DNA of 62,583 bases, counting the filler, from Choristocarpus tenellus KU-1152 (Eukaryota; Protista; Phaeophyceae), in NCBI GenBank assembly GCA_964200185.2. It is 8 parts of 8 records of this genome, joined end to end, with 100 filler letters (N's around TTAATTAATTAA, not from the genome) between each part and the next. Parts side by side here need not be neighbours in the genome. Positions count along the whole stretch, not along the records: positions 1 to 6,492 come from CAXNAD020008007.1; positions 6,593 to 11,528 come from CAXNAD020012465.1; positions 11,629 to 31,599 come from CAXNAD020000426.1; positions 31,700 to 36,578 come from CAXNAD020012691.1; positions 36,679 to 44,689 come from CAXNAD020005272.1; positions 44,790 to 47,840 come from CAXNAD020022672.1; positions 47,941 to 50,555 come from CAXNAD020026256.1; positions 50,656 to 62,583 come from CAXNAD020002064.1. One strand, written 5' to 3'. Shown piece after piece: positions 2,574-58,306 of this stretch (positions are counted from its first letter, which is position 1; every line of letters begins with the position of its first letter). Under the pieces are notes generated by a model. That model did not search any database. It was not told where the DNA came from and worked only from the letters and a program-made list of their open reading frames with translations. The position numbers were made by a program, and so were the translations under genes.

Positions 2574-2831
2574 GCGTGGAAGTATCTTCGAGGGTAGGAG
2601 TTTTGCCCTGTTTGTCCATTTGGTGCTTGGCTTCCCACATTTTTTTAATGACATTTTCCTACTCCAAAATATTTAGGAGTAGTTAAAACGTTTATGCTAT
2701 GAAAAGGTGTGTCCGGAACAAGGATATTGACACTTCCTAACAAACATGATAACCAAAATTACATCAAAATCGCAACATTGGATTTTGGCCCCCAAACGGA
2801 CACGCCTCTGCCGTCTAAGATACTTTGACTC
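2574..2831 (+). mobile_element. MITE family A (~258 bp)
   Basis: TIRs GCGTGGAAGTATCTTCGAGGGT / CCGTCTAAGATACTTTGACTC; 4-bp TSD TTGT. Confidence 0.9.
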
Positions 2832-2965
2832 TTGTATGAATTGAGTCATCATGGCATTCATGATTTTGCTTGACAGCAGGTCAGAAGTGAGGGAACCTGT
2901 CACAGAAAAAGAAACCTTGAATTTCGTCCATGCTGGTGGTTGACCTTGAAACTGTGAGTACTCTA

Positions 2966-3208
2966 GGCACAAAGTAAGCGAGAGTTGCATTTGAAGGATG
3001 TTGACAAAATGTGCAAAAATCGCTTTTTTCCAGTGTGTGTAAGAAATTTTCTGCATTGTGTTGGAAAAGTAAAAAAAATAGAGAAATGAAAGCTCTCACG
3101 TCAAAATTAGAGATCTATCAATAGAAAAATGGGTGAAAAGATAAAAAAAAAAACAGACTTGAAATGCAAATCGGTAAGATCCTGGGTACCTCTCGCTTAC
3201 TTTGGCTC
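2966..3208. mobile_element. MITE family C (~245 bp)
   Basis: TIRs GGCACAAAGTAAGCGAGAG / CTCTCGCTTACTTTGGCTC; homologous to 18495-18733 and 59573-59829. No clear TSD. Confidence 0.75.
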
Positions 3209-3399
3209 TGAGCTGTTTATGTTGGTACTGAATATGTGAGATGTCTAAGGCAGTGTAGGGTAGTAGATGGTGTGCAAGTCACTAGCCATTATGTGTTCAT
3301 CACCAGGGATGATAGGTCTTTGGCATGTGTGATAGTGGTACTTTTTCGGTTGAAGTTTAATGTGTGTCTTTGACTGTGTGAGGAATGGAAAATGGGGTA

Positions 3400-5806
3400 G
3401 TTCGACATGCACTCATTTGTAGGTAATCAACAAAGTGGAGAGGGCAACTACCCAATACGTGCCCGACACATAATACTGTGTTGTAAGAGGTTGATCATTG
3501 TTCCTGTACCTGAATTCCATACCTGTACTGGTTTGCTTGATTCGATTCCTTATCAATTACCAAAGGCTCTCATTCAGTCTTCAAATGTCCACGCATTCTG
3601 GTGTGTTTGTCTGCCACAGTCAAAATGTTCTTGAGATATGTTTGCACAAGTGATCATACAACCCGATGATCTAGTACCTTACAAGTATCACAAAAAACGC
3701 AGCATTTACTGAACAACAGTAGTTACGCAGCAAAAGTATATTTGAGTGTTTGCTGGAACAAGAGAGAAACGTTACAGAACGGGCTCCACCGTTTCCTAAA
3801 AAATAGATTAATGTTAAAGAGTAGATGGCTCTGAGGGCTTGTCTTCGACAATGAACGTTACAGAGTAGTATGTGGTCCCAAGCGTCGTCTAACACAATAA
3901 ATGGTACCGAGCAAGTGACCTTGAGCGTTTGGCATCTAACAGGCATTGCAGGCCGAATGAAAATTAATTGAGTCAAGTGACCGAGAGGGTAGTAGTGAGT
4001 GTCAACTGTTCCTCAGAATTTCTGGACGTGCATGTTCACAGTCCTCAGGTGTTTATTGCCATGTTACATACAAGTAATAAGCCAAAGTATCTGGTTGTGT
4101 GTGTGATTTGCACTGGGGCGTCCGTTTTGACCCTGACGAGGTGGTTAAATTCGTGGAATTTCTGTCTTCAGTCGTGGAGGATTTGTTCGCTCTTGATGCT
4201 ATGTGGCATAGAATGTATTTAGGACCTGTGCTTGCCGCTTGGATCCTTGTAGACTGTGTGATTATGAGTTCGGAAAGCCGCCCTGACGTTCAATTTTTGT
4301 TAGTGTTAGGCGATTAGAGCCATTCCGCCGTGGGTTAGAAGAGTGTTTAACTTTAGTAAACATTTCGCCTAGCGCTTTTATAGCTGGTATATTAGGTATG
4401 AGAGGGTGTTCTGTCTGTGATAGCTTTGCCAACTGTCTACGAATGACCCATGTAACGGATAAACGCAAAGAAGTCTTAGATCCGATGTCTCGGTTCCATG
4501 AACTCAAGGGTGTATCAAGAACGATACCAGTAAGTACAAGAGAAGAAAGGCAGGAAATATAATTCCGCCAAAAATCCGTGTTATCGGGCAAAGAAAAGCG
4601 TGCATACGAGGACATATGTGTACATGAACGATGGTCTAATATTTTCTTTCGAATGGAATAAATGTAAGAAATCTCTTGCATTTAACGAAATCCGACCTCT
4701 CCAACGTACGATGTCCGTGGAGGCATGTACCGCATTGTTCCAGAACAGGTGGTTCCTGGATAGGAACGGCTTAGGTAGCTCCTGAAAGTTGTGTCTCTCC
4801 TAACATTACAGCGATGTGGGACTTGTCCAGAACCAGGCCTGCGCGGGAACGTCTTGTTCTGTACTGTATCGTTCTGGAAGAAGCTGGATATTGCGCAACT
4901 CGCCATTCTCCCATTTAACCTCGTAAGGGTAGCTGACCCGCTCCTCTCCAACTCTCACCGTGTAGTGGGGTTGGTACTTGGTCACAGCCCCTCGCATTCA
5001 ACGATCGTCCCATCTGAAGTACAGCCCCCTGCCTTTCGCACTGCATATAGCGTTTCCCTCTCATCTAAATCAGGCACAGCCCTCAGTGACGGTTCCAGGA
5101 GGATGTATCTCTGGATATCCTCCTCCTCGTTCCTACGCTTCTCCTGACTGACACGCTGGGCTGCTGCAGGCCCATTAACATTGTCCCTCTGCTTCCTCTC
5201 CCGAAGTTGTTGGACTCCCTCCTCGATTTCGTCCTCTGTCTTGTAGAGCTCAGGGGGAAAAGAGTCTTCGCCATCGTCAGGAAGGTAGGAAACAGAGTGC
5301 ATGTATGCCCCCGAATCGTCAAGGTGAACATCATGGACCTCCCCCTGTACGATAACCCCTCCTCCCACGTATAAGACAAAGTATGTGCCTCGGCCGAACC
5401 TTGCATGGGATGTGTTCCCAAGTCGGAGTTGCCTTGATAAGCGAGCAGGTACTCCACCGAGTGATTGTCGGTTGGACTCTGAAGTGAACCTCTGGTATTG
5501 TCCAGGCAGGATTGTGAACGAGTTGTCCAGGTCGTTGTGGTGAAAGTCTGTCAAGTCAGGTATGATGACAGCCTCAAGGGGCACCACACGGGGACTCTGT
5601 TGTGCGTGCTGTAACGCCACCAAGATATTTGTTGTTAGGGTGGGGTTGATGGGGAGGCAGCTGTTAGCATGTTTGCGCAAAAGATGGCGTTGTGTTTTGC
5701 ACGCTGCTATTGTTTGGATTGTTGGAGAAGAAGTGATATTATATACAAGATATATTTTGGAAGTGAAAGGAAGGTATGGGAAAGGTTGTATGGTTCGAAC
5801 ATTCAT
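3400..5806 (-). pseudogene. Decayed TE-like gene with Tudor-like segments
   Basis: 274-aa ORF 4982-5806 plus frameshifted continuation 4806-4997. Two GxV...YxVxY/W-D/E-G segments resemble Tudor folds. Downstream ORFs are broken by stops. Confidence 0.35.
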
Positions 5807-5917
5807 TTCCGTAATTACAAGAAGGTTCTCGATTGTGGTAGAAATGTAGAAGAAACGAATTGAAACAAAGAAATTATACTTAGAGTAGCTGTTTTACGTA
5901 AACTCGTTCAATATATA

Positions 5918-6324
5918 TGTGGAAGTGTCAAAGGTGCCAAGTTCTCTGCTCAAGGGGGCAATTACAATCACCGGAATTAAACTCCTTCACCTCAGAGGGT
6001 GGGACCGAGTTTCAAGGTCTTGGCTCTAATCTCAGAACAGATCAGTAAATCCAGAACAGGACCCTTTCAGAACACGATAGATGTTCCAGAATGACTGAGC
6101 AACGTCACAGCAAAGAAATGGATTTGTCAGAATCGGAATGGTTCATCGTTCTGAGGGTCCATTTTGACTGTTTGGTCAAATTCGGATCTCATGGGTCTGA
6201 TTGTTTCTTTGGACTGGTCGGTATGAATGAGCTCAAATGACGTGGTTGGCGCGCGCAATTGTATATGATCGCGCGTCTTATACATAACGTGTGTGTCGGA
6301 GAAAAAAGGAACCTGTCCCTGACA
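5918..6324 (-). mobile_element. LTR-like repeat (TGT...ACA), inverted homologue of 27523-27935
   Basis: ~410-bp homology to 27523-27935. Preceded on the minus strand by purine-rich GGGCGGAGGCAA (PPT-like). No TSD, so possibly the 3' LTR of an element running into the gap. Confidence 0.6.
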
Positions 6325-6924
6325 TTGCCTCCGCCCAGTGTGGATTCTATTCGACACAAACAAAAAAGTGGCTGGCCAGCACTTCATGTCGGACAGGTCC
6401 ATCTTTGGGAGGAAAAAATAAACAAACGAAACATCCTGGTTGTATCAACTCAGGGTAGGTACACAAAAGGTGGAGCACTAGTGGTGATGAGCNNNNNNNN
6501 NNNNNNNNNNNNNNNNNNNNNNNNNNNNNNNNNNNNTTAATTAATTAANNNNNNNNNNNNNNNNNNNNNNNNNNNNNNNNNNNNNNNNNNNNCTTGTCCT
6601 GTGCCCCCAGCCAACCAGAATTCTCCCGCCCACAAAACTCAGTTTACTTCATAAACTCTCACTCTTGCTCCACGGAACTAGCTTCTAATATGGAAATCGT
6701 AGGAAATGTCATATTTTCTTTCATGTTTGGGATAAACAGGATACGCAATATGTCACATCTCAAAGGAGTATATTGGTAGAAGGCATATTTTTCGTACGTG
6801 CAGGTGGCTTTGACCGGACTAATAGTGCAAGATATCCTGTATGAGCTCTCTGTTAGTATAGATAGGATGGACATGGAACAGAAAAACCTAAACTGAAAAC
6901 TAAAAAAATTATGTAGAAATCTTC

Positions 6925-7320
6925 ATCTTACAGGGTACGAATTTTGCCCTGTTTGTCCATTTGGGGCTTGGCTTCCCACGGGTTATTTATGACATTTTAC
7001 CTACTCCGAAACATTTCAGAGTAGGCAAAATGTATACGTTATGAAAAGGTGTGTTAGTAACAAGGATGTTGATACATCCTAACAAACACAAAGCTAAGAT
7101 TACATCAAAATCGCAATATTGGATTTTGATATAATTTTGACCATCGTGTTAGTTAGGAAGTGTCAATATCTACGTTTCGGACACACGTTTTCATATTGTA
7201 TACATTTTACCTACTCCTAAACATTTTGGAGTAGGAAAATGTAATTAAAAAAATCGTGAGATGCCAAGCCCCAAATGGACAAACAGGGCAAAACGCTTAC
7301 CCTCTAAGATACTTTCACTC
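6925..7320. mobile_element. Two MITE-A halves fused in inverted orientation (~395-bp palindrome)
   Basis: Forward copy 6925-~7130 joined to a reverse copy ending ...GATACTTTCACTC at 7320. Confidence 0.85.
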
Positions 7321-8263: not shown

Positions 8264-8524
8264 GAGTGAAAGTATCTTAGAGGGGTACGAGTTTTTCCCT
8301 GTGTGTCCATTTGGGGCTTGGCTTCCCATGGGTTCTTTTATTACACTTTTTCTACTCCAAAATGTTTAGGAGTAGGAAAGTGAATATGTTCTGAAAGGTG
8401 TACCCTGAACATGGATATTGATACTTTCTAATAAAAACTATAGCCAAAATTGCGTCAAAATCGCAACATTGGATATTGGCCCCAAAATGGACACGACTCT
8501 CTACCCTCTAAGATACTTTGGCTC
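8264..8524 (+). mobile_element. MITE family A
   Basis: GAGTGAAAGTATCTTAGAGGG...CCCTCTAAGATACTTTGGCTC; TSD TCA. Confidence 0.92.
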
Positions 8525-8807: not shown

Positions 8808-9065
8808 GAGCGAAATTATCTTAGACGGTAGAGCCGCGTCCATTTGGTGACCAAAATTCAATGTAGCGATTTTGATGTATTTTTGGCTATTGTATTTGTT
8901 GGGAAGTGTCAATATCCATGTTCTGGACAAAAAAAATCATAATGTATACATTATACCTACTCCTAAACATTTTGGAGGAGGAAAATGTAAGAAAAAAACT
9001 ATGGGAAACCAAGCCCCAAATGGACAAACAGGGCAAACCTTGTACCCTCTAAGATACTTTCACTC
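8808..9065 (-). mobile_element. MITE family A
   Basis: GAGCGAAATTATCTTAGACGGT...ACCCTCTAAGATACTTTCACTC; TSD TGA. Confidence 0.92.
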
Positions 9066-9389: not shown

Positions 9390-10714
9390 GGGTCAAAGCA
9401 TCTCTGGGGGGAGGTGCTGGCGTCTGTTTTTGACCCTTTCTTCGATTTTCCCATTTTGGTGTGATTTGGTTGCGCGTGTGTCGGTTTTTTAATGTGGGGG
9501 GGGAAAAGAGTGCTGTTGGTTAGGGTCAGTTCTGTCCTGGCGTACGCAAGAGGAATGGGAAAGTATGCCACCATATTTTCGGGTTGATATGGAGTTTCAA
9601 CGTTTACATGTGGCGGATTTTGAATGTGTTCAAATAGGGTTATTGTTTGGGGTATGTTGGTCCTATAGTTCGCATGAAGAATGAAAAATATGCCATTGTT
9701 TGTTTTAGGGTTAGATCAATGTTTGTTTGGTTGTTTGAGTGGGATTTGATATGTGGACTAAGAGGGCTATTGGTTGAGGTCTGTTGTCCCAGTGCTTGCA
9801 GGAAGAAGGGTAAAACATAAAAGTTTTTTTTTTTTTTTTAAAGGTTAGCTATTGTGTCTTTGGTTGCATGAGTTGGATTTGGTATGTACACAAAGAGAGC
9901 TTCCAGTTAGGGTCTGTTGTCCCCCAGTGTTTGCATGAGGAATTAAAAAATATACCATGAACTGTTTTGAGGTTATTTTTCGTTTATTTGCTTGCATGTG
10001 TCGTATTTGGTATGTACACAAAGAGGGCTGCCGATTAGGGTTTGTATCCCAGTGTTTGCACGAGGAATTAAAAAATACATCATGAACTGTTTTGAGGTTA
10101 GATTTTTCGTTTGTTTCTTTGCATGAGTCGTATTTGGATGTACACAAGCAGGGTTGTCGGTTAGGGTCTGTTATCCCAGTGTTGGCATGAAGAAAGGAAA
10201 AATGTTTCATCCTTTGCTTTCGGGTTAGTGCAGTGTTTCTTTGATAGCATGTGTCGTCGGATTTTGAATGTTTCAGACAGGGTTATTGGTCAGGGTCTGT
10301 TGTCTTATGTTTCGCGTGAAGAATGTTAAAATATACCGTCCTTGGCTTGGGGTTAGGTTTAGTGGGTTGATTAAACCCTGATGAGCTAGGGTTAGGGTTA
10401 GGTGAGGAAGGTCGACCATGGCACTGGTACGTAATTTGGGTAAGACGCATGTCGACTTTAGGCTGCCATAAGATGCAGATGGACTCAGTGTAAGGGTCAG
10501 GGTAAGGTTATGGCTAGTGTTGGTGTGCAGGGGTGGCGATCCAGGCCATTCGTTGAGTTCATAGTATGTGTTTGTGCTAGGCTCAGGGTTAGTGTTGTGG
10601 TTAGGAGTATCGGATGTGGACTTCGGGAAATGTTCTTTGGAGATTAGAAGGAAGACGAAATCGGCCCTCGTTTGTCGACACTTGGGCAAAGCATGAAATG
10701 GTGCATGGAGTAAG
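9390..10714 (+). mobile_element. Short-spacer terminus and subterminal repeat region of a Sola2-like sibling element
   Basis: GGGTCAAAGCATCTCTGGGGGGAGGTGCTGGCGTCTGTTTTTG... aligns with the reverse complement of 44300-44453. Confidence 0.7.
9770..10330 (+). repeat. Subterminal tandem repeat, period ~127-133 bp, about 5 copies
   Basis: GTTAGGGTCTGTTGTCCCAGTGTTTGCATGAGGAATTAAAAAA-like motif at ~9773, 9906, 10033, 10160 and 10289. Confidence 0.85.
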
Positions 10715-11166
10715 AAGTGAGAGTATCTTAGAGGGTGCGAATTTTGCCCTGTTCGTCCATTTGGGGCTTGGCTTCCCAGGGGTTTTTCATAAGTTTTCTT
10801 CCTCCAAAATATTTCGGAGTAGGTAAAATGTGTATGATGAGTTAAAGTATCTTAGAGGGTACGAGTTTTGCCCTGTTTGTCCGTTTGGGGCTTGGCTTCC
10901 CAAGGTTTTCTAAATGACATTTTCCCATTCCGAAATGTTTCAGAATACATAAGATGTTTACGTTTTGGACTAGGTATCATGTGTATGTCTGGAACAAGGA
11001 TATATTGGCACTTCCTAACAAACACGATGTTAGGAAGTGCCAATATATCCTTGTTCCGAACACACCTCTTCGTAACAAACACAATCGACAAAATTACATC
11101 AAAATCGTAACATTGGATTTTGACCTCGAAACGGACGCGGCTCTACCGTCTAAGATACTTTGTCTC
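10715..11166 (+). mobile_element. Composite MITE-A (5'-half copy 10715-10838 plus rearranged copy 10839-11166)
   Basis: Two successive left TIRs and one right TIR; internal 30-bp perfect inverted duplication at 10991-11057. Confidence 0.85.
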
Positions 11167-11439: not shown

Positions 11440-11669
11440 GTGGAAATGTGTACATGGGATGGATAATGTAAGTGCACTTTTGCTGGTTATGATGACCCAA
11501 ATGGACACCCTGGTGTAGACCCCCCCCCNNNNNNNNNNNNNNNNNNNNNNNNNNNNNNNNNNNNNNNNNNNNTTAATTAATTAANNNNNNNNNNNNNNNN
11601 NNNNNNNNNNNNNNNNNNNNNNNNNNNNCCCTGGTGTAGACCCCCCTCCCCCCCCAGATACTTTGGGTC
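11440..11669 (-). mobile_element. MITE family B (poly-G/C TIR), spans an assembly gap
   Basis: Ends CCCCCAGATACTTTGGGTC; internal CCCAAATGGACACCCTGGTGTAGA shared with 31362-31550 and 47680-47840. Confidence 0.75.
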
Positions 11670-15700: not shown

Positions 15701-18700
15701 AACATCTTCTTTTTCTTAGTCATGTATTATCTCACAACAGGTATGGCCATGTCAGGCATGTCAGGCACACACTGACTGCATGCTCATGGTGTAGTGTGCA
15801 AGATGAACTTGATGACGATCAACACTTTTCAGATTGGTTTAGAAGTGGGGGGGATATACGTGAGGTGTGTGAATTTCGTGTGTGGAGAAGGTATATAGTC
15901 GTTCTATGATTTTGTAGTTGAGATATTGACCATTACTTTGTCAAATAATCCAGCCAGAGTACGTTCTAGCACAACTAATACATCATATTTTTCCGGAACA
16001 AAATGAACCATTTAAAGTATGTCGAGAGATTATTAGGAACGTGGTTTAGGCACACGACTGAGGGACGTGGTGTGCGTGGTTGTTTTCATGCCACGTGTAT
16101 TAGACACGTATTAGACACATATTAGACATGTATTAGACATGTGGGTGATAAGGATCCAAACGAAATTGACAGACCTGCTGTACACAGTTGTTTTCTCCAT
16201 ATATCTTAGATGCGTCAGTAATAGCAACCCTAAACAATATTGACGGATCTGGTAGGTATGATTATCTTTACACACGTAAAACATGCATATCTGTGGGGTC
16301 TGTGTGTACGTTTGAGCTTGAAAGTGGGCAACAGGGAATGAAAAATCTGCAATAGAGGCATCACAGCCCGGGTCCCTACCAGAAGATCACATTTTGGGTC
16401 AACCATTCTGTCCATAGCGTTCAACAAATAGTTGTTGAAACTACGCATGTAGAAGTCAGGGTCAAGGTCAAGACGGAAACAAATGCAAGTAACCTTTTGG
16501 GACAACCATCCCCCAAATTTTGTTCGGCAGAAAATTTGACTAAGGGTAGAATTGATGGAAGGGGGGATCTGACAATCGTTAAAAATATCCAACACTCCAC
16601 ATGGAGTGATAGCTACTAATATGTTTCTCACTTTATGGTATCAACATGTGCTATGTCAAATATAGGCAGCAGAAATTATATTAAATACAACGAAACAGTA
16701 CAAGTAAAGGTGACAATAGTCCCCACTTATGGTCACTCTGCCCTCAACAAAAACAATAATAATTTGAACCGTCTCGTTCTACCTCTAACCAAAGGGTGAT
16801 CATGTGAGACCCTGAACTCCTTTGTCATAGGTATCCCTGTTTAATGCTTATAGTTCGAATAATGTGTGATCAAAACGGAGAAATTGAAACCAGAACTACA
16901 ACTAGAGAGGCCATGGGAAGGGAGAGAGGATAGTGCAGACATCATGAAGGCTGAACGGTGTCGATTCCATCTCTTGCACCCAGCCTTGTGCTGACGACTT
17001 CAAGTCTAGCAAACATACACTTAGTCTTGGTGTATGTGTCCAACGATATTGTTTTTTTGTGATCAGGGGGAGGGAAGGGTAACTACCTGTACTCAGTCCC
17101 ATTTGCTGCCCAGGACATGAAAAATGTGATCCAAGAGCTGATGGGTCCACCAACATGCGTCAAGTTTAACATGGTTGCATCGGTGTCTTGGACCTCCATC
17201 TATCCTCACCATCAGTGGAAAACAAAGCTCTTCAGACTACGGTTCATGACAGTGGCACACAAGGAAGCAAAGGACAAATGATACTTCCAAGGATGGAACG
17301 GATATGGTGAACTGTGATGAGAACAATCTGTGAACAGGAATTGAGAGTCACAAGCTATCTATACTTGAAAACAAGATGATGCAAACGATGGCAGTAGGCC
17401 TCATGTCCTAAGGGAAACAAATATCAGAACTCTATGGGGAGCTGTGGGTTCTGTACTATACCATGATCACATTAAAGTCTCCACACACGAGCCTCAAGAG
17501 ACTCCGACTGGAGTATACAACAAAGAGACCATAACAGGCTTACGGTGATCATGAACAACTACACAGATGGGGTATAGTAGAGACTGGGGAGGGGAGATGA
17601 GCCCTCAGTAGAGAAAGAAGGCTTAGGAGAAAAGAGATATACTTACTTATTCCTATAGGAGTTCTTCGCCATAGGTCAACATGTAGTTTCTCTCTTCCCG
17701 CACAAAGAAATCTTCACATGTAACCTCTATGACATTCCCCCTTCAAAAATATCTCAAAATACACTGAATATTATTAGCACTGTGTCTATGTTACTGGCCT
17801 GGACTGTGGTGTCTGTGTAGTCTACTTTCTGGTAATAGATGCTCAGCGGAATGTAGTCCGAAGTGAAGTCTAAGTCATATGTCCTTGCTGCCTTGTAGTC
17901 TTTCAATTGCGGGGTGGGTAATAGACAGTGTTGGTGCAATCATGGATATGGAGTTGCAGAGAGTTAGAACAACGTGCGAAATTAGTGGAATGAACCCGAT
18001 GGCGAAGAAGACACATCAAGAGAAATCTGGGCAATGGATCGATCATAGTAGCCAGCCCACGTACTGGTCAGTATTGGATAGCGAAAAACATGTCAACATA
18101 CGGTACAAGGAAACTATGGAGGGTAGGCCATCGCCTTGAGACATGTAACAACATGATTGCCATAAAGACATCTCGGTATGACCCTGCTTTCCTCTATTGG
18201 GATTCACTCACAGAATCTTTAACGAGAACAAACCAAAAAAAATGAATAGGGTAAGGTTGGGTTCTGAGGAAGTCGCTGCAATAGTGAAAGGGGTGCTTCT
18301 TGCTCTCTCACATTCTCTTACGTAGGAGTAGTCTGGAACAAGATCCAGCAGATCAAATCCCTCATGAACCTGCATCCCACAGATATTGTGACATGTATGT
18401 GGCATCTGTTGGCCTGGCGTAGTGTGAAAGTGACTTTATATATGCATTATGTCCTTCAAGGTGGCAACACTATCTGTATCTGCTCGGTAGGTCAGAGTCA
18501 AAGTAAACGAGAGGTACCCAGAGTTGATTTTAAGAATGCTGAGAAGTATGTGCAAAAATTGACTTTTATTACAACTGCGTGTAAGATATTTTCTGAGTCA
18601 TGTCCAACTTTTTCTAACAAAAGAGATATATCAACGTTCTCAAGTCAGACTTAGCACTTCATCTATAGAAGTGTGGGTGATTTGTGAACGATAAAAAAAA

Positions 18701-43966: not shown

Positions 43967-44008
43967 GCCTAAGCCTAAGCCTAAGCCTAAGCCTAAGCCT
44001 AAGCCTAA
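43967..44008 (+). repeat. (GCCTAA)7 telomere-variant microsatellite
   Basis: Seven perfect units (TTAGGC on minus). Confidence 0.95.
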
Positions 44009-44902: not shown

Positions 44903-47525
44903 ATGTGGAGATTCCTGTCCACAGTGAAAGGGCTACCATCCTCTGTAGTGCAAGGGATGCCCATCCCCTTGCATAATTGGCTAAGACGTTTGACCATGGG
45001 GGAGTGTTGTCGAACCTTTCCCCCTGCCCTGGGGCAGGTGCGGGCATGTCTGGTAATCGACATTTTGCCTCCTGCACCCTGCCACTGGGTCTATCTATAG
45101 TGTTTTCACGTTTGTGATATTTTATTTATTTAGGGCTTATACTGACGTACGTATAGTTTTCATTTGTTTTCCCCCTGACACATCTGCAAAACGTGAGAGG
45201 GCATAATAATAAATAAAAAGGTGTCACAATCTAAACTGGCTTTTCTATATACTGATTCTTTTGAACTGGCTTTTTCTAGTAGTTCCCATCCTATTTGAAC
45301 TCTCTTACATTCCCCCGACGCTCTGGTTGTAGATAGATATTGCAGGGGACCCACCAGATAACCTCAAGTTGGACTAGTTGTGCTTAGAGATGTGGGCTCG
45401 CACAGTGAAACTGGCGACAGGAGTAATCACAGGAGAACGAACAAGCCTCAGTCGAGCTATTACACTGGGTGAGATATATTATACTGGGTGAGATATAGTA
45501 CTATATACCTATAAGATGCCTTTGCGATTGGGAGTGTGTCATAGAGTGGGGGGCATACAATTTCTAATTATAAAGGACCTCGTAATCTTCTCAGTTTTGT
45601 ACCTTTCTTCGACCTCCGTCGCTGACTTGCCCGGGTCGACAGTGGAGTCCCATCGCCTCGACCATCGTCACCAGGCGGAGTTATTGTTGGATCACGTCCT
45701 GTCGAGGAGACGAAAGGAACGATCACCGTCCGCTTCTCTTCCGACTTTGGGGATGCGAGTGGGGGTCGCGGGGCCGCCGGGAGCTGGAAAGTCCACCTTC
45801 ATCGAGGTATTGTGCAGGGAATGGAGAGTTGCAAACTTTCGCGGGGTGGAAATACAACATACTGGTGGTTGTTAGTGGTAGTTCGACATAGTTACTTTTT
45901 CACCGTGGCTCTCTGGAACGCTCTCCTGTTGTCGCTGTTCAACTCTGATTCGCTAGTTTTTTATATCCTTCTTATCCCTGCCATACCCCATCGAAGGCCT
46001 TGGGCACTAGGCTTACCTCAGACGGCAAGAATGTAGCGGTAATAACCATTGATCCTTCAAGTGTACGAACTGGAGGTTCCATCTTAGGGGACAAGACGAG
46101 AATGGAGCAGCTATCGCGGGATCCGAGGTGAGGGTCTTATCAATTCATGTCCTGTTGGTCATTCTCTTAGACTGACCTTGATATGAGGACTGTGAGCCAC
46201 CTTGAATTCATCACACTTTCTATTGAAATGTTGTAAGGTCGAGGTGCAGGAAAGTTTAGAGAGGCTGGTTGTACGAAATGTGCATTTCTTTTTTTGGCAT
46301 GGAACTCTGGTGTATATGGTCAAGTCAAAGGGTGTCGAACAGCAAAAAGATTGGGTGAATTATACTGAATCTGCTTTTAGACCTGCTTGTGCAAGGCAGT
46401 GACAGCCAGGACCTGAAGCACCAATGTACGCGAGCGGAGGAAGTTTAGCATATATTTCGTAGAAGTGTTGACCCATGCAGATTTCCCTATTTGGAGAGAC
46501 TTCTTTGATACTATATCTCCAGGCGCTATTATGATGCATCTGGAAAACACAAGAGCTATTCCTTGGATATTCGTTGATGATACCCTCCACTGCACTTATC
46601 GCAACTCCATTTTTTGAAGAGTTTCCATTTTGAAGGGTTTCCATGCACGAACACAGATACACACATGTTCATGCGCCCTGAGCTATGCACCAAATTCAAG
46701 TAGGCACCAAACCTAATTATTCTAGAGCAACATATTCACTTTTCATACAAATATGCCCACAAATATCAACAATGCTCCACTACTCAACACCAACAAGCAG
46801 GGCCTTCATCAGGGCATGCCCTGCACGAGGGATCCTTGGGGGGCTAGCCAGATACACCCATGACGTGGTACTGCTCTGTCAAGTGGCAGGTTATGACCCT
46901 GTGATTGTGGAAACAGTGGGACTTGGTCAGAGTGAGGTCAGCAGGTGGGGTCAGATGCTGGGTCACTACTGTAGGTGGATGAAAAGAGGTATAATAACCC
47001 ATTAGGGCACACTGATGTATCCTTGGGTGGAGAGTAGTAGTTAGGGTAATAGAAGGAGGGCATGCAGTTCAAAGCCAGCATGCTCTACCATCCATTGGAT
47101 GCTCATTTTTTTCATTATTGTGTTGCAGGGGATCGGTCTAGTTTGTGAGGAGTGTTTTGTTCAAGTTTGCAATGTGACTGGAAACATTTGATTTGATTGT
47201 ACCAGTGCATGTTTGAATACTCATTTTTTTTATGTTGACTGGAGCTGTAGAGCTCTAGGTACAAGGCATTATGCACCCTATATGCAATACTACTGCTTGA
47301 CTTCACACCTGAAAATATCATATATCACATATATACATATAATGTGCGAGGTTACTGCTGTAGCACTATGTGGGATTTTGATTCATTGTGCTAAGGTTAT
47401 GATGGGTTATTTGTGGGTATTCTCATACATCTCCAACCTGTTACTAAATTTCAAGGTGGAGGTGGAGCAGACAGTGGACATGCTACTGCTCCTGCTCCCA
47501 CCAGCTGGGGGTGACAGCCTGCAAG
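44903..47525 (+). CDS. MMAA: Methylmalonyl-CoA mutase-associated GTPase MeaB/MMAA (partial)
   Basis: Exons ~45378/45388-45468 ([19 protein letters not shown]), 45643-45806 (VESHR...[18 protein letters not shown]-loop), 45997-46127 ([30 protein letters not shown]), 46801-46936 ([16 protein letters not shown]...[11 protein letters not shown]), 47456-47525 ([17 protein letters not shown]). Putative first exon 44903-45037 (MWRFLSTVK..., transit-peptide-like) is less certain. 3' exons not found. Confidence 0.92.
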
Positions 47526-47679: not shown

Positions 47680-47840
47680 GACCCAAAGTATCTGGGAGGG
47701 GGGAAGGGGTCTGCACTAGGGTGTCCATTTGCCCCCAAAGCAGGAAAGGTGCATTTACATTATCCGTCCAATGTATGCAACCAAATCACCCAAAAATTGC
47801 GACATGAAAAAATTGACCCCAAATGGACAGCCGCCACCCC
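47680..47840 (+). mobile_element. MITE family B, running into a gap
   Basis: Starts GACCCAAAGTATCTGGGAGGGGGG; internal GTCCATTTG and CCCCAAATGGAC. Confidence 0.8.
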
Positions 47841-47940: not shown

Positions 47941-50100
47941 ATCAAACGTTATGACGGGACAACCCCAGAGGGCGAAGCTACTGGTACCACTATACAGTTG
48001 AAATGTTTTGAAGGGCGATGAGGCGAGAAGAGGGGCCCAACCAGAGACGAACTGTTTTTGAGATAATCTTCTCTGAGTATCACCTTTCCACCACTGGACA
48101 CACAAACTTGTCGTGTCCGAGAGACTTGGTTGGCCGAAGAAAGAGGCTGGATAAGCCTTGAAAAATAACTCATTTGCCGCTGACCTCCTCACTCAGACCC
48201 TTCATCCCTCTTTCCGTCCTCCTCTAACTCATGTTAACCTTCCCTCTGCCTGGGAATGGAGCTCTGAAGGTATTTCTCGGACTAGTCGTTGACCAGTGAT
48301 AACCTGATTTGATCTTACAGCTAAAATACTCGCCATTTTCCATACAGATTGTTTGTCGCTAGATTGAGCATCCCCCCCCATACACTCTAAAAAAGGGCCA
48401 TTTATCAGCCCTTGGCCCAACTGGCTTCAATATTTTCCACGTCTTTAGTGCTTCACTCTTCTGCTCGGCCCATATACTTGACGTAGGCCACACAAAGTTC
48501 TGCTGTCTTTTGCTCGCTATCATCCCATCCTTCCTTATCCTTATCACCCTCTGCACGGACAAGGGCATATCCAGGAGATGGGTCAACATCGTAGTCATGA
48601 TGTAGGTCATTACCCAAACCGTCCTTAGAGTACTTGAGCACATTCATGGTTCAAGAAGTCAGAGGTGTTGAATGAGCTTGCTTGTATGGCTTCCCACCTA
48701 TCCATATAGAGATACCACTGTTCCACGAGGGTAGAAAGTCACATATATATCTGATCCTACATAACAGTGGCATCTCAATAATTGAAACCTCCATCCAAAC
48801 ACAACTCTAAGTTAAAGAAAAGTACCTTTTGGTTCCTTGGATATGTACGTCGCTAAATCAATTATTACAAGTGGAATACCGTAGTGATTTGGTCATTACG
48901 ATTCGTAACACTAGAAATCTCGAAAGCATCTAAATTAAAATGCAGATGAAGAAAGTACCTCTAATAGTAACGGCCTGTCAAAGAAGGTTCAACACCTTCT
49001 CCTGTTCTCAGTAGACACCAGAACCAGGGGGAAACAGTACCACCGACACCATCAATAAGTGTCAAATAGTGAGATATGAGTGCCATCAGGATGATAGTAA
49101 GTCGCACAACCATTGGACTTGGTGTGCCATCAAGACTCAAACCCATAACCTCTGATTTGATTAATACTTCAGAGTATTTCACAATCAGTACTACAATACG
49201 TCAATATTCTTAAGAATTAATTCATGCATAGAGTTATCCAACTCTAGATGAGGTAGTAAACCATCCTCCGTTACACAAGCTACTCTCCTCTGTCCCTCAT
49301 CATCCAACATATCGACTAACATATTGTCCAACATACAGCATTCCAGAATGTGATACACGGAACTCTTCTAAATACCCGATGCTCCAAACCCATTGTTCCA
49401 AGAAAATGGAAATAGTAGACAGAAAAAAAAAGTCAAGGTGTACAATACTTCTTTGTTGTATGGACTTTATCTCACACAAGCAATGAAGCATAAACTAGGT
49501 AGCACAGATAATATCCAGCTTTAAAATCTCCAAACAACTGGTATATGACTCCATGAACGTTGAAAACCATAGTAACTCTCACCGGGCCAGTGGATGCAAC
49601 CCAAAAGTAGCCTCCAGTCACAAGCAGTTCATTCCAGAAGGGTACTGAGCTCAGAGCCATGACAACAGAAATAACCAGGACGGCCTTTGCTAAGATTGTG
49701 ATGTCTTCACCACTGATACACTGACACCTCCTGTATTTCTGTCAACACGAAGAGATCACACGGGAAAGCCAAGTGGAGGGATACCATCTTTGATGCTCTA
49801 CTCGAGAGTACTGTTTCCTGTGGGTGCTAGTGATTCAAAAGTCCAGTTCCCTTGATCCGAGGTCCTATGGCGATGAATTTTTCATCAGTAAGTCTCTGAA
49901 GAACTCTGGTGTATGTAATAGAAGGGAGATCGCAGATCCGGTTCATGAGCGTAACATCACTCCTCTACCCTTCTCAAAAGGAGAAAGTCAAGTTCATGAC
50001 ATAAGGTTATCGAAGCCTTTTCCATGACCAGAAGCTGCCGCCGCAACATCTGGTGTTACAGCAGGCACGGTGCTAAGGTAGAGAGAGCTCTAGGATCGCT
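47941..50100 (-). mobile_element. Degenerate Ty3/Gypsy pol remnant
   Basis: APLLASSPFKTFQLYSGTSSFALWG (ORF 47893-48192) resembles the RT-RNaseH linker APLLxxPDxxKPFxLYTDASxFALG; SPMVV...PDGTH RT start near 49080-49125. Confidence 0.5.
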
Positions 50101-52896
50101 CGACTACGTAATTATGAAACAGACGACTCTATTAGCGACTGAGGTTCACCATAATAATACGCAATACACCAATTGAGTATTGATTAAGGTTAGTGATATT
50201 CTGGCTATCTCTTATGACCATTGCTTCCTGTCTGTGTTCATTACTACATCCTCGGTAGCCGTTAAGTTAGACCGGGTATGAATAAGTATGGTCATATACG
50301 ATCTGACTTGGAGAACCTTGCATCAAATTGTAACGGCCCAACCATTGAACAGTGCAGTGTTTTTTTTTGTCAAAGAGGTGAACGGGCTGCCGAATGACTA
50401 CAGTCTGTATCCTCAAAGTTTAAGAAACAGGTTGCCGATGCGGCTCACTTATCAAGAGGGGTAGAAGGAGTTGAACCTCTTATGAGGAAGTAGGAGCACT
50501 AGCATTGCTTTCCCAAACAGTTACATCCTCTTACCTCGTTGATGTGGGCGAGGCTNNNNNNNNNNNNNNNNNNNNNNNNNNNNNNNNNNNNNNNNNNNNT
50601 TAATTAATTAANNNNNNNNNNNNNNNNNNNNNNNNNNNNNNNNNNNNNNNNNNNNGGGCACTATTGCAGAGTGAGGTAGAGGTGCTCAGTGAGGGGACAA
50701 TGACAATCAATAAAATAATAAACAACAATTACTGTACATCTGGGGTCTTATGCATAATGAAAAAGAAAGAACAGAGGTGGGAACAACAACGAAATAGAAA
50801 GAGGAACACAAGGTGTAACAGTGGGACGCACTTGATGTAAGTTCCGAAGTAACTTAGATGACGTTTGCTATGATATTCCTGTGTGTGATGTGGGTCAACT
50901 GAATATCAACTGATGCTATGCTTCTATTTACTGTCGTCGATGTGATGATGAGTTGGAATGCGCAATAAATTAATTGAACACTAACAACCAGTGCAGTGCA
51001 CCAATCAAACGTCAGTACAAGCTGGTGGTATTGTGTATCATATCAACAAAAAACAAATGAGTAGACCATGCTATAACAGGAATTAATCAAGCCATTCATT
51101 TACACAAGTCTTGAGAACATCAGCTTCTTCAACATACTAGCTAGCGTTTCTTATTGAAGTGTGCTAATTTTTAAAGGCTAGCGTAAGTTGATTGGAGGGA
51201 GACTCCTGGTGGAGGCGTCCATCGGTTATAGCAAACGTACTTCGAGAAGAGCGGAGTATCGAGAAACGACGCTTGCAACACTGGTTGAAGATGGTGGAGG
51301 GGTAGTCGAGTCAGAGGACGAAGATGAAGAGGCATTGAGCAGAACCGCACAGCAGACGACTACTACAGGACAGAGAATACGACGGCTGACCCCACTCCCG
51401 TCATAGTTTAATGCTTATAGTGGGGATTATGACGAGGAAGGTTATGCTACTTTCGAGAGAAATGTTATTTCGTGTGCTTCGATCGGAGGATGGAAATATG
51501 TAAGTTGTGACTTTTGTGATTAAGCTAGATGGACGGAGCGAGAAGTTGAAGAAGCGAGCATGTCTATGGCAGCTTTGGTGATGGATTTGGATGAACTAGG
51601 AACATATGTTGCCGATAACCCATGACAGTCCTTCGGGATCATTTCAAGCTTTGAGGAACCATTTTTCCACAAGTAGAATCACTGACAGGGCTACCATGCA
51701 TTCCAAACTTGATTCTCTTCCTCTACCAGTGAGGGAGGATCCGTCCACTGCCATTATGGGACTAGATAGCATTGTGAAGAAGATGGACTTGATGGGTGAT
51801 GAGCCTAGCGAGGCACGATTACAAGTACCATGCACAATTGTTTAACAGATGAATACTTTTTCGAGATTAGCCATGATATTGGAAAGGTCATGCAGCTAGA
51901 CTTGATCTTCAAGAACGACTATTCTCGTTTTGTTTTGTTATATTTCCTTCGTGCTAGGTTGGATGCTGCCGAAGCCTTCAAGAAGTACCTGGCCGATATC
52001 CGGGCTGACGGTACTCTCTCTTGGGTCTTGTGCATGCGGTCTGATAATGGGGGGGAATTATATGGGGGAGCTTTCGGTGCTCTTTGCTGTGATCGCGGGA
52101 TAAAACAGGAGTTTACACCTGGAGACAGCCCTCAATTTGATGGTATTGCTGAACGCATGCTGGGTATTATTGATAAAGCTTCATTAGCTGCCCGCCTTCA
52201 AGCTCCACTTAGTTTCCCTCTTTTCACTATCTCCAAGACAGACTCTCTATGGGCTGAAGCTCAACACTATGTCTGTGACTCACTCAATCGCACATCGACC
52301 ACGGCTAACCCAGGTTGTAAATCATCATATGAAATGTTGTATGGCACCCCTGCACCTGTTGACCTACCAATTTCTTCAACCTGATTTTTGTCGTCTTAGT
52401 AAAACCCGTAAGACTTTCCAAAAGGCTCAAAGGTGCTTTTACCTGGGGCCAGGAATCAATCGCCCCCGTGATGCGTACCGTGTTCTTACTTCGACCAGTG
52501 CCATAGTTAACTACACGTAGCCTGACCTTGCCGTGCACTAAGGACCCTAGTCTTGCCCCAGTAGGAGAGGTTGCCCCTGCTTTGTGAAAGGGGGGGGGGG
52601 AGCTTGATGCAGACCCTCGTTCTGAGGACAAGGTTTCCCATCCCAAAGCAGTTGACTCACCATTAGATGTACAATCTATTTGTTCATTTCACTCCTCCAC
52701 TTCATCCTTCTCTGACGACTCTTCCTGCAGAAAACGGAAGTCAGGACAGTTTGTTCTCGGTGAGAGACCATCCTTTGGTAACAAATGAGAGGATTTGACT
52801 AATGATTACCCACTTGGTGAAGGGAGCGTAGGTCAGATTGTCAAGGATCTGGCTGTTGACCCTTTCCCTGGTGATGAGGAGGGAGGTCAGGTTGAC

Positions 52897-53154
52897 GAGT
52901 GAAAGTATCCTAGAGGGTGCGAGTTTTGCCCAGTTTGTCCATTTGGGGCTTGGAATCCCATGGGTTTTTTTATGACACTTTCCTACACCAAAATGTTTCG
53001 GGTTAGGAATATATATACGTTATGAAAAGGTGTGTCCGGAACAAAGATGTTGACACTTCCTAACAAACACGATAGCCAAAATTACATCGAAATCGCAACA
53101 TTGAATTTTGACCTCCAAATGGACGCGGCCCTACGCTCTACCATACTTTGGCTC
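52897..53154 (+). mobile_element. MITE family A
   Basis: Full TIRs; TSD TGAC. Confidence 0.93.
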
Positions 53155-54023
53155 TGACATGAGTCTGCCCAGAGACACTACCCGAGATGGTGAAGAGAGT
53201 GTAGGATATGTCTCATCCTTGAGTTCACAGCATTTGCCTCAGGCAGGTGCTGACCGAACAGCTGTGTACTGCATCTCGTCAGCTGGAAGAAAAATTCTTC
53301 CCAATCCAGTCCGTGAACCTTGCGTTGAGTTGGTTAGGACTAGACAGGAAACTCATGCCAGAGCTGAGAGCTGAGAGGGAGTGCAGGTGTTGGTAATGTG
53401 GTGTCTCTTATTGCTAGTGTAGAGAGGAAACATGTTGCTTGTGACTTGGCTGTACAGCCCACACCTGAGTCTGTGTTGATGAGTACCCCCTGCATTGTCG
53501 TCTTGTTTCTGAGTTGGGATCAGCACCTCAATCTTATGCTGAGACTCAAAAAGTCTGAATACTGGCTGGTATGAGAAGAGTCCATGTCTAAGGAGTTCCA
53601 TTGTTTGTTGGACATGGGTACCTTCAGTGCTGCAGATGTACCTCTAGGCCGTAAGGTCACTGGTTCCAAGTGGGTGTTCAAGTGGAAGAGTGATCCTTTT
53701 TTGGAATGTTTAATGGGGCTAAGGCTAGGCTAGTTAGTTGCTCAGGGTTTTGGTCAGGAGTATGGGTCTTGAATATTTCGAGAACTCTGACCCCACTCCT
53801 TCCCCCTCATTAGTTAGACTAATGGCCAGTGTGGCATGCGAGTTGGATTTGAGATTGTGGCACCTAAATGTGGAGCAGGCATTTGTTCAACCTGACTTAG
53901 ATGAGGAAGTGTACTTGCGCCTCCGACAGGGATGTGGAATCTCTCCTATACAACCGTACGCCTTTACGGGTCCCTGTATGGTTTAAAACAAGCCTCTAGG
54001 ACTTGGAATACCTACCTGGTTTC

Positions 54024-54282
54024 GAGTCAAAGTATCTTAGAGGGTAGCGCCGCGTCTATTTGGGGACCAAAATCCAATTTGGCGATTTTGACGTAATTTT
54101 GGTATCGTGTTTGTTAGGAAGTGTCAATATTCATGTTCCGGACACATCTTTTCGTAACGTATACATTTTATCTACTCCTAAACATTTTGGAATAGAAAAA
54201 TGTCATAAGAAAAACCCACGGGAAGTCAAGCCCCAAATGGACAAATAGGTTAAAACTCGTGCCCTCTCAAATACGTTCACTC
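54024..54282 (-). mobile_element. MITE family A in Copia RT
   Basis: TSD TTC; removing the element and one TSD restores WNTYLVSTLKRNSFDQCRIDPC. Confidence 0.95.
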
Positions 54283-55934
54283 TTCCACCCTTAAGCGCAA
54301 TAGTTTTGATCAGTGTCGAATAGACCCGTGTATAATTAGACTCAGGAGGAATGGTATTGTGAAGATGATGCTTGCCGTTCATGCAGATAATAATATGATG
54401 GTTTTGGCATCTGGTGATGATTGCAATGATCTTTGTGCCTCCTTGAATAGTTCCCAACCAAAAAACCTTGGCTTATTGTCTCAGTATTCTGGTTGCACGT
54501 ACACAAGAGATTGGAAGCGTGATACCCTCTCCATTACCCAGACTAACTACATTTACAACTTGTGTTCACGGTTTTCCATCCAATCAACCACTCCTATCCC
54601 TGCAGTCTCTTCCAGAAATCTTGGAATTAGGGAGAGGGACAATATCTCAAAGGATTGTCCCTTCCGAAAGGCGGTTGGAGGGTTGATGTGGGTCAACAAA
54701 ATGACCAGGCCAGATGTGGCTAATACAGGAAAAGCTGTTGCCCGTCATTTGCATGCTCCGAGCCAAGTACATTGGAGAGCTGTGACCCAGATCCTCAAGT
54801 ACCTCAAAGGGACGCGAGAGTTGGGCCTTACCTACCGGAAAGGCACAGGATTGGAGTTGATGACCTACGCTAATGCAGATTTTGCCAATGAGTCTCTTGA
54901 CAGACTTTCTGTATCGGGGGGGCAGTGATGTGCGGGGGAGCAGTAGTTGCTTGACTTTCTAAGACCCAACGTGCCATAGCACAGTCGACTGCCGAGGCAG
55001 AATACATAGCCACGGGGGACTGTGAGAAGGAGTTCTTGTTTCTGCGAGGTGTGTTGGAGTTCTTAGAACCTGATAGGACTGGGTCATGTTATGCAGCGTA
55101 TGAGGATAACACAGGAGCTATCCATTTGGTTAACAGCCCTTTGAGTTCTGGCAGGACTAAGCACATAGATGTGCGACATCATTTCCTAGGGGACTTGGTA
55201 GCCAATTGACAAATAAAGAATGTTCAGGTCACGTCAGATGAGCATCATGCAGATGTGTTGACTAAGCCTTTAGCAGAAGAATCTTTTTGGAGGCATGTAG
55301 GGGCTTTGCTAAATATTTAGACTATGTTTGGTGGTTTTTGGTTCTTGCTGAATTTGTTTTTTTTTGTGCTTGTTTGGATTTTTTTCTTCAGTGAGTTCAA
55401 TACCTGGTTGTTTTCTTGTCATACAAGATCGACCTGAGGAGTCTCCTAGGGTCCATAATTGTACCTTGTCAGTTCTCAAGCGTTGTTTGAGGTAGGGAGG
55501 GGGTTCGATTAGACTCTTCCTTCCGACTCTATCGGACACTTGTGGTAAACTGTATATGGAGTAAGAGAACAATCATTAGTGATTAAGTTATCAGAACCTA
55601 TTTCTTGTGATTTGCTATATGAGAACATTTCTCGTATAGAAGGAAATATTTATGATTTATGGGGTTCTGCATGCCCCACTTAACCTTAATCAATCCCTCT
55701 ACAGACATCAAGCAATCTCCCTGGGTTTTATCACCTTTTTTATTTATGATGATTTGGGCGATACTTTAACAACTGACACATCCTGACCCCACCCCAAGAC
55801 ATCACCCGATGTATCAGACATGACAAATAGAATTGTGTCAAGACTAGTTGTTGCCGAGGGGGGGGCAGGGACGGACGTATTCGTCCCCAGAACGGCTGCA
55901 GTAGATATCATCTCGGGGAGGATATCTGAGGTGA

Positions 55935-56300
55935 CTACAATATCAGAGGAAGATATTGTAGCAACAAGTGAGTGTTCACTTGGAGAGGTTGAAGGAGATT
56001 CCATTGTCCCAGAGGGAACTGTTGAGGAGGAGATGCCTACCTCAAGGATGGTCAGAAGCTGATGTCAATGTTGGGAGGTCGACTGGAGTAAGCACAATAT
56101 CAGAGGAGGATGTTGTAGCTACAGGAGAGTATACCCTTGGAGGGGTTGCAGGAGATGCCTTCGACCCAGACCGTTGAGGAGTGGACTACGTCAGAGATGG
56201 TGGGAATGGATAGCGATCTGGAGCGGTCGACTGGAGGGAACACAATGCCAGAGGAGGATGTTGTGGCAACCGATGAGTTGACCTTTGTTGAGGCTGCGGC
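55935..56300 (+). repeat. Three ~150-bp coding tandem repeats (TISEEDVVAT...)
   Basis: ACAATATCAGAGGARGATRTTGTAGC-like motif at ~55937, 56094 and 56242. Confidence 0.85.
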
Positions 56301-58047
56301 ACATATTACTTCCCCGTGGGGGTCGATTGGGGGAATGAGATCTGCTGTGTTTATTGGTATATATCACATGCAATACCAACTGGGACATTGCCCTGAGGTG
56401 ATGGTTAGGAAGTATGCCAAGGGGGGTGCCAATATTTTGACTGGCGAGTGGAAGAAGGATGAACGGAAGATAAGGCATACGTATACTGTGCCTGGAACTT
56501 CTCAACTCAATGGAAAGGTGGAACCGGCCATCGCAGAAAAGTGCTTGGTCATAATGCATGCAGCTGGTCTGGAGGTTTGACCGGGATTGTGGGGTGAGGC
56601 ACACGACATGGCTAACACCATTCCTAACTTGTCCCCCATGTTTGTTAATCCCCGCTGGAAATCCCCATACATGGATTTAGGGAAGTTAAACTAGGTCCGA
56701 GTGGGATTGCGGATGAGTCCAGGCAAGATGCTGCTGAGAATGTTCTGCTAAGTCCCACGACAGCAGAAAATGCAAGGGGGTTGGCTATGGAGAGAGAGGA
56801 GTTGGGTAAAAGGTTGGATACTGTCATCGGTGATGTGGATCCAATGTCACAGCATGGGAGTGGAGACAGTGCAATCAGATGGTGTATCGGATACAGGCAT
56901 GGATGATGTGGATCATACGTCCCAGCAGGGGAGTGGGAAGAATACATTGATGGTGATACTTGGAGATCATAACAGTGATCCTTTACCTGAACCTGACGCA
57001 CCATCCGAGCAACAGCTAAGGTCTATGAGAGAGGCAATGGAGTCGGAGGAGTGGCCCTTGTGGAAAGGGACTGTGGATGAGGAAATAGGCATGCACGGCA
57101 GACAGGCAAAGATTCAGTTTGCTTTCCTATTAAATAGGCACAACATTTTCGGTCGAGGCACATGGATGATAAAGGGAGAGTGCAGAGGTCCAAGGCGGGG
57201 CTAGGACTATAGGATGGCAAAGTTTGATTGAGCAGTGGGATTACAAAAGAAGGTCCTGTGTGGGATAGTCCAGGCGTCTCGGAACTGGAATTTTCAGCTG
57301 GTGAAAGCTTTGCTGGAGCTGGGATTGGAACAATCTGAGGCAGATCCATGTTTTTAACATTGATTGTGGATGGTGAGGCTATGATGATCATGATCGTTCA
57401 TGTTGATGACATGCTGATGGAACCAGGGGCTGGCTATGCTTTGGGTGTCATCGAGGGACTTAATAAGAAGTTCTGAATGGTGAATTTGGGTGAGGTGACC
57501 AAATGAATTGGATACAGGATCAGGAGGAACAGAAAACTGGGACACTTGTTGGTAGACCAGAGCTTGTACATAGGAGACCTGGCTGATAGACATGGAATTG
57601 GCACGACTTACGAGTCACCATCAATCGCAAAGAGGGTGGAGTAGGAGGGACGTGTTCCAGACGGCTCAATGGTTGGAGGTATACAATGGGCTACTATTTT
57701 GACTTGACCAGATGTTTCTTTTGGGGTTAGAGAGTTAGCATATTGTGTGGAGAATCCAAGTTGATCTGATCGGCTGAATGCCAACAAAGTTATTTGGAAT
57801 CTGTTAGGTACTAGAGATCGTGGCACAACCTTTGGAGATTTTGGATTGTATGGGAATGGACCAAGGGACCAGCTAATGGGCTATACAGATGCTGACTATG
57901 CAAACTGCAAAGAGAGTAGGTTATATCATTTTGGAGTTGTTGTAATGTTTGGGGGAGGATGTGCTGACTGGTAGTCTAGGAAGCAGAAAATGGTGACCCT
58001 GTCTACTGCTGAGGCTGGGTATGTTCCACCGTGTGAGTTGGGGAAAG

Positions 58048-58306
58048 GAGTGAAAGTATCTTAGAGGGTACGAATTTTTCCCTGTTTGTCCATTTGGGGC
58101 TTGGCTTCCCATCGGGGTTTTTATTACATTTTCCTGCTCCAAAATGTTTTGGAATATGTCAAATTGTCTACATTATGAAAAGGTCTGTCCGGAACAAGGA
58201 TACTGACAATTCCTAACAAACACGATAGCCAAAATTACATCAAAATTGCAACGTGGGATTTTGGCCCCAAATGGACGCGGCCCTGCCCTCTAAGATACTT
58301 TGGCTC
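58048..58306 (+). mobile_element. MITE family A in Copia RNaseH
   Basis: TSD AAG; removal restores ELGKEVMFL. Confidence 0.95.

Follow-up and report, generated by a model that had tools for sequence, protein, structure and literature searches.

Bipartite transposon ends of unequal depth in Choristocarpus tenellus, and a possible long/short pairing preference in a likely Sola2 lineage

How does a transposase pair the correct ends of an element in a genome crowded with copies of its own terminal inverted repeats (TIRs)? The question is raised by a stretch of 62,583 nt, fillers included, from Choristocarpus tenellus KU-1152 (Phaeophyceae; assembly GCA_964200185.2), hereafter the window: repeat-rich eukaryotic DNA of 44% GC, with several gaps, in which three families of miniature inverted-repeat transposable elements (MITE-A, MITE-B and MITE-C) lie beside large, decayed elements. 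Together they would form one likely Sola2 lineage, with ends made of an outer TIR and an inner motif of about 12 bp that begins 8-13 bp, or roughly one helical turn, deeper at one end (the long end) than at the other (the short end). A sequence-only reading of the window had likened this geometry to a 12/23 rule followed by a Sola2-like transposase. The unequal anatomy is plain in all four families; as to its cause, an asymmetric transpososome that is most efficient when a long end is paired with a short one has, by analogy with known systems, about an even chance (roughly 0.5) of being the right explanation.

Ends with a roughly one-turn asymmetry in four families

MITE-A is about 258 bp long and is present as 11 complete copies besides composites. 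Its 23-bp TIR is separated from the inner motif, GTCCRTTT, by 17 bp at the long end and 7 bp at the short end. Counted, as throughout, from the element tip to the start of the motif, the distance is 41 in 13 of 15 long ends (the one at 33152 by alignment; the exceptions are 42 at 8264 and 43 at 38612) and 31 in 10 of 12 short ends (33 at 8524, 32 at 33411). When 12-mers common to both subterminal regions were compared with those of shuffled sequence (2000 or 3000 shuffles), the top shared 12-mer of the MITE-A consensus matched at 12/12 positions at 41 versus 31, which was equalled in 0 of 2000 shuffles. The 41/31 offset first read from the sequence, with 42/33 for the copy at 8264, stands on these counts.

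Here and below, counts of two-ended copies, target site duplications (TSDs) or pairings refer to the window, and a MITE copy marked + has its long end at the left. A 4-bp TSD flanks six of the 11 complete MITE-A copies (chance 4e-12), namely 2574-2831 (+), 28012-28272 (+), 28786-29013 (-, with internal deletions), 37401-37659 (+, inside the Sola2-type gene remnant described below), 38612-38868 (+, motif 43/31, in the same gene region) and 52897-53154 (+). Four more have a 3-bp TSD (chance 4e-7): 8264-8524 (+), 8808-9065 (-), 54024-54282 (-) and 58048-58306 (+). The diverged copy at 33152-33411 (+, motif 41/32) has none, and a composite at 10715-11166 (+), with two long ends (10715 and 10839) and one short end, lacks an exact TSD. 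The copies at 52897 and 54024 lie inside a copia remnant (51500-58000, +; weak Pfam matches to rve and RVT_2), which hosts three MITE-A insertions.

The large elements have their motif at 43 (1-62, -), 45 (36505-36578, +, a gap lying between end and gene) and 42 (4079-4135, +, continuing without a break into the gene's 3' part) in long ends, and at 33 (9390-10356, +, with subterminal tandem repeats of about 126 bp) and 34 (44334-44453, -, on the gene's 5' side, uninterrupted by a gap) in short ends. The ends at 4079 and 44453 have a 12-mer in common at 12/12 positions and offset 8, equalled in 0 of 3000 shuffles. The offset proposed earlier for these ends is thus upheld at 42-45 versus 33-34, with the long end at 4079 as an addition. 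Inside the short end of large elements lie the tandem repeats of about 126 bp together with runs of telomere-like hexamers (9505-10510, 40750-40790 and 43966-44330). The end at 62 is inserted in a transposase remnant that we take to be of mariner type (63-1058, -; motifs HVDEKWF, FVQQD and QPGNS), broken by it near the third catalytic motif; this remnant was rejected as the element's own transposase, being the insertion site of the end.

In MITE-B, the motif begins at 44 in the long end at 47680 and at 32, 32 and 31 in the short ends at 31362, 31755 and 34190. At the long end 11669 (11451-11669, -, duplicated across a gap) it falls inside the gap, and a manual count on the duplicate at 11506 puts the distance at about 43. 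The offset of 43-44 versus 31-32 given earlier for this family agrees with these values. A scripted motif search found no match in the low-quality long end at 33914; the copy to which it belongs (33914-34190, +) has a 3-bp flank match, which brings the 3-bp TSDs to five altogether, three of which can also be read as 4 bp minus one terminal base. Further copies are 31362-31536 (-), with its short end at 31362, a long-end motif at 31498 and the long terminus lost in a C run; a short end at 31700-31755 (+) that adjoins a gap; and 47680-47840 (+), with a short-end motif at 47828 and its terminus in a gap. The latter lies just past one apparent exon of a probable host gene (45492-47520, +) for a MeaB/MMAA-type GTPase (Pfam MeaB, 1e-5).

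MITE-C, a fourth family absent from the earlier reading, has a diverged TIR and the motif TTGCATTTTAAG at 39-40 (long) versus 30 (short). Its copies are 59573-59829 (+, 39 versus 30), 2966-3208 (-, long end at 3208 with the motif at 40, and a spacer deletion in the short end) and 18495-18735 (-, short end at 18495, long end truncated). Contigs of public sequencing runs were also searched with 59573-59829. They give the long end as TTTTGCATTTTAAG (47 contigs in run X1, 65 in X2) and a matching form at the short end, and a copy with three bases corrected to the majority letters of these runs matches at 11/12 positions at offset 9, which 5 of 3000 shuffles reached. Both MITE-A and MITE-C are 257-261 bp long, with interiors lacking significant similarity; a size preference in end pairing is a possible reason for the equal length.

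A scan of offsets from -20 to +20 that presupposed no motif peaked at +10 for MITE-A, +12 for MITE-B, +8 for the large ends and +10 for MITE-C; the first three beat all 60 shuffles, and MITE-C does not. Measured by motif, the offset is 10 in MITE-A, about 12 in MITE-B, 9-10 in MITE-C and 8-12 in the large elements, and motif starts keep to two bands, 30-34 at short ends and 39-45 at long ends. The one-turn offset read at the outset is thus approximate, and not a fixed 10 bp.

In the large and MITE-B ends, the inner motif resembles, in reverse complement, the opening bases of the TIR (8/8 at 9390, 3-6/8 elsewhere), so a single binding domain might meet two sites that face each other in each of these ends. 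The notion that the motif repeats the start of the TIR in inverted form was kept as a lead only, the 3-8/8 matches having been obtained with three registers freely chosen.

The gene of the large elements

The large elements very probably belong to a Sola2 transposase lineage, as judged from motifs in a decayed, spliced gene at 36748-39960 (-), the upstream limit of which is uncertain. Four Sola2 motifs occur there in the published order on the minus strand: S.F...RP at 38386, SCVC..H at 38163, CM...C..C at 37895 and G.KS.H.F at 37183. Each pattern has 0.07-0.9 occurrences per shuffled window, and a GT-AG intron between the first two brings back the published spacing; motifs and spacing were taken from the Sola2 alignment in supplement 2 of PMC3627910. 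Moreover, a profile-free search with the open reading frame (ORF) 4985-5803 led to three proteins (P0001-P0003), and since P0001 matches both 37171-36748 and 5605-5393, the two regions belong to a single gene family, whose reading direction is toward the long end. With P0001-P0003 as tblastn queries, the 3' part of the gene is found at 4896-5605 (-). No N interrupts the spans from the long end 4079 to this 3' part and from the short end 44453 to the 5' side of the gene; the gene thus has the short end on its 5' side and the long end on its 3' side. With four motifs in the right order and a gene remnant within the large elements, the Sola2-like assignment made from the sequence is supported. 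The database proteins that match the window's large elements number five, all annotated as Choristocarpus tenellus.

Several points count against the assignment. The motif patterns were drawn up after the translation of the window had been viewed, the core motifs DFxENY, SDG and HGK..D were not found in the large element, and the long end 36505 is separated from the gene by a gap and has no TSD in common with 44453. Pfam searches of 23 + 90 + 7 proteins and of six read-through frames of 48001-62582 brought up no transposase that could be the element's. The room between the third and fourth motifs is too small for a catalytic core, and given that the core motifs are missing as well, this gene copy is probably internally deleted. 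An HGK at 39100 was ruled out as the catalytic core because it lies upstream of the N-terminal motifs.

Protein searches with the ORFs 39187-39840 and 42636-43022, which are mutually unrelated, gave no matches. The ESM Atlas matches for P0001 and P0004 were all below 0.9, and the predicted fold of P0004, the C-terminal part, has a mean predicted local distance difference test (pLDDT) score of 36. At the gene's 3' part (4896-5400, -), the homologue P0002 has a weak BRWD_AD match (0.0009, below the curated cut-off), a candidate for an extra binding module. Between the transposase and the short end lies a second gene remnant (41525-43025, +), divergently read and lysine-rich, for which a homologue search gave no match. 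Elsewhere in the window, translation fragments at 22800-24310 (+) look by eye like a decayed non-LTR (long terminal repeat) reverse transcriptase, and have no Pfam match.

Pairing of long with short ends

In the mechanism considered here, the catalytic domain would cleave the tip of the TIR, and the inner motif would be held by a second DNA-binding module, possibly in the Cys-containing C-terminal part, as RAG, P and piggyBac suggest. With a difference of one turn, the motif would face much the same side of the helix at either end; symmetric end pairs would be disfavoured, and intact copies in other parts of the genome would mobilise the MITEs in trans. A strict 31/41 rule, under which the Sola2 transposase cleaves long-short pairs only, as a convergent 12/23-type device, and joins them to the target through this same uneven complex with a stagger of 3 or 4 nt, falls somewhat short of even odds.

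All 18 two-ended MITE copies (12 of MITE-A, 3 of MITE-B and 3 of MITE-C) are long/short, and short/short copies number 0. The sole long/long structure in the window (6915-7320, no strand assigned) is a MITE-A foldback joined at an internal quasi-palindrome (7106-7128), which has lost its left terminus and has no TSD. The two ends of a family have also changed in concert. With one copy taken per family and end, TIR positions 6-23 match at 17.0/18 between the ends within a family versus 12.2/18 between families, and the inner 12-mer at 10.3/12 versus 7.7/12. Spacer sequence has turned over to near chance identity (5-7/17 for the long spacer of MITE-A against the others, 1-3/7 for the short spacers). 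Further, over the 11 MITE-A copies there are 4 indels in 94 end positions, all of them +1 or +2, versus 24 in 165 interior positions.

The family is very abundant in public runs X1-X4, where MITE-A (37401-37659 as query) matches 29,291, 42,055, 6,290 and 682 contigs. Among the matches listed, flank-bearing contigs at the two termini stand at about 1:1 (857 versus 894 in X1, 1208 versus 1298 in X2). Strand changes were found in 0 of the 15 joints listed out of 230, and spacer indels in 0 of the 12 indels listed out of 16. In many contigs, a short end is fused straight to a long end, with 0 bases between them in 32 (X1) and 75 (X2) and 1-2 bases in fewer. P-element dimers, according to the excerpted text of 10.1101/158386, retain a full TSD at the junction, so the direct joints of MITE-A resemble insertions into the tip of a resident copy or exact fusions of one end to another. 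A metagenome scan with the MITE-A pattern gave 0 matches. A looser pattern gave 22, about the number due to chance by a rough estimate; none has element-like G-rich spacers, and repeated matches had common flanks.

It is conceivable that phase alone matters. The inner motif would then have to lie on the right helical face, 31 or 41 would serve at either end, the long/short arrangement would be a historical accident, and symmetric elements would move. The conservation of the motif at both ends and the clustering of offsets near one turn would fit this explanation. However, no symmetric family has appeared in four lineages despite the concerted change of TIR and motif, and the 15 joints listed out of 230 in the public runs show no strand change; we regard it as unlikely.

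A number of observations weigh against a preference of the transpososome for unequal ends. The offset is not constant, ranging over 8-13 bp between pairs, and was partly counted across G runs of uncertain length. Raw copies of MITE-C fall short of significance (their signal is matched or beaten by 630 and 679 of 3000 shuffles), and an automatic MITE-C consensus, which was misaligned, gave no signal (1419 of 2000 shuffles). Many interior indels of MITE-A lie in homopolymers or may be shared by descent, which weakens the indel contrast. Inverted junctions assemble poorly, and the public runs are possibly the window's own source. Moreover, when internal deletion in an asymmetric parent gives rise to a MITE, the product will be long/short by default, and hence the 18 copies amount to 3 families and not to 18 tests. 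The short ends of MITE-A, MITE-B and the large elements are homologous well past the motif (0 of 300 shuffles for each of four pairs; for MITE-C the homology to other short ends is below significance), which makes the asymmetry one inherited ancestral state and not a repeated invention. In a rough simulation of neutral drift, the share of runs that kept four offsets between 8 and 13 bp was 5-62% and varied with the divergence and the sizes of indels.

This homology and the outcome of the simulation, together with offsets spread from 8 to 13, are what would be expected if the motif were bound through a flexible linker, distance hardly mattered and a single ancestral difference of 10 bp had drifted by a few bases. 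Such frozen ancestry is nonetheless rather improbable, for spacer sequences have come near chance identity and yet their lengths are kept within 30-34 and 39-45, and indels are fewer in the ends than in the interior.

Movement of the MITEs by a PIF/Harbinger transposase, with the inner motif as the site of a second DNA-binding protein and the Sola2-like gene as a passenger or another element's, is a very remote prospect, for 6 of 11 MITE-A copies have a 4-bp TSD and Sola2-motif gene pieces are contiguous with the long end 4079 and the short end 44453. In its favour are the terminal pentamers of Ectocarpus Harbingers (GGGTC, GACCC and GGGCC), which the window's ends resemble, and their TnA targets, both as given in the consulted parts of PMC12477816; a TNA before 11 of 44 window ends versus a background of 6.6%, the ends being non-independent and a few end positions uncertain; and the similarity of the inner motif to a Medicago Harbinger TIR in the portion of PMC2213677 consulted. 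Unlike the strict 3-bp TnA/TwA TSD described for Ectocarpus in those parts, MITE-A does not keep to a 3-bp TWA/TNA duplication, and TNA occurs in only 2 of the five 3-bp cases. The window also has no Harbinger transposase remnant, no ordered cluster of Harbinger motifs and, in the scanned ORFs, no Pfam DDE match. No TSD was found at the two MITE-C copies tested or at any large-end pair tried. An unrelated repeat of about 410 bp, at 5918-6324 and 27523-27935 (85% identical), has short G-rich inverted ends and TNA-like flanks and is possibly a Harbinger MITE.

Comparison with known transposon ends

Sola2 elements are described as having short TIRs with 5'-GRG termini. In the window, the termini are GAG or GGG in MITE-A, MITE-C and most large ends, and GAC or GGC in MITE-B. 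The Sola2 TSD is 4 bp (PMC3627910, main text in part), and Ectocarpus has one Sola2 family, Sola2-1_Ec32, with a 26-bp TIR that begins GGCGG and a 4-bp TSD (PMC12477816, in the parts consulted). The window elements are like Sola2-1_Ec32, Sola2-1_HM, Sola2-1_BM, DFa-2 and PPa-1 in the order of the core-flanking motifs, in short, imperfect TIRs and in having 4 bp as the commonest TSD. They differ in their one-turn asymmetric bipartite ends, in the class of 3-bp TSDs and in very abundant MITEs, none of which appears in the published Sola2 passages and tables consulted; the catalytic core is, in addition, missing from the window copies. Among dictyostelid Sola2 ends viewed by eye, DFa-2 seemingly has an AT-rich 12-mer at 25 versus 31, and DFa-1 is without it. 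No study of the mechanism of any Sola transposon is known to us. Asymmetric ends in Sola elements were not reported in the literature searched, which did not extend to the founding Sola paper, to Repbase or to the Ectocarpus sequences; an earlier description is possible.

The analogy to RAG/Transib and P elements drawn in the sequence-only reading finds support in published spacer asymmetries of a similar kind. PflRAGL-A has a 10-bp spacer asymmetry (10.1101/2023.08.20.553239, as excerpted), and several Transib families have 12/23-like ends (PMC1131882, in the sections consulted). Like these and the RAG signals, as far as those sections describe them, the window ends combine conserved outer and inner elements with a variable spacer and differ by about one turn. 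Unlike the RAG/Transib signals, they have no CAC heptamer, A-rich nonamer or 5-bp TSD; their termini are G-rich, their TSDs are of 3-4 bp and their transposase belongs to another superfamily. Coupled cleavage is proven for RAG and is hypothetical in the window elements. It is plausible, judging from classification, that the asymmetry arose independently of RAG/Transib, since Sola2 and Transib are listed as separate superfamilies in the part of 10.1101/2021.09.26.461848 consulted.

The P element likewise couples a TIR with an internal transposase site at unequal distances, 9 versus 21 bp (PMC7776569, in the part consulted). It differs in its 31-bp TIR, 8-bp TSD and THAP-domain transposase. In piggyBac, the asymmetry is far larger than one turn and the target is strictly TTAA, unlike those of the window. 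The likeness lies in internal motifs that are asymmetric and recognised by a Cys-rich C-terminal domain, and in the need of piggyBac for unlike ends, two left ends failing to transpose in cells (10.1101/2022.09.26.509586, as excerpted).

If a long/short preference is true, a RAG-type solution would exist outside RAG/Transib and P, which would suggest that asymmetric synapsis is a general DDE way to pair correct ends in genomes crowded with an element's own TIRs. The family also offers the substrates for such studies: four natural end pairs of different sequence and similar geometry, and copies from tens of thousands of contigs. Should the rule fail, the anatomy of Sola2 ends and a target duplication of mixed 3/4-bp length would still have been newly described. 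Overall, the principle of unequal ends is already known from RAGL/Transib, P and piggyBac; what the Choristocarpus elements add to it, as far as we found, is the anatomy of ends in a likely Sola2 lineage and its mixture of 3- and 4-bp TSDs.

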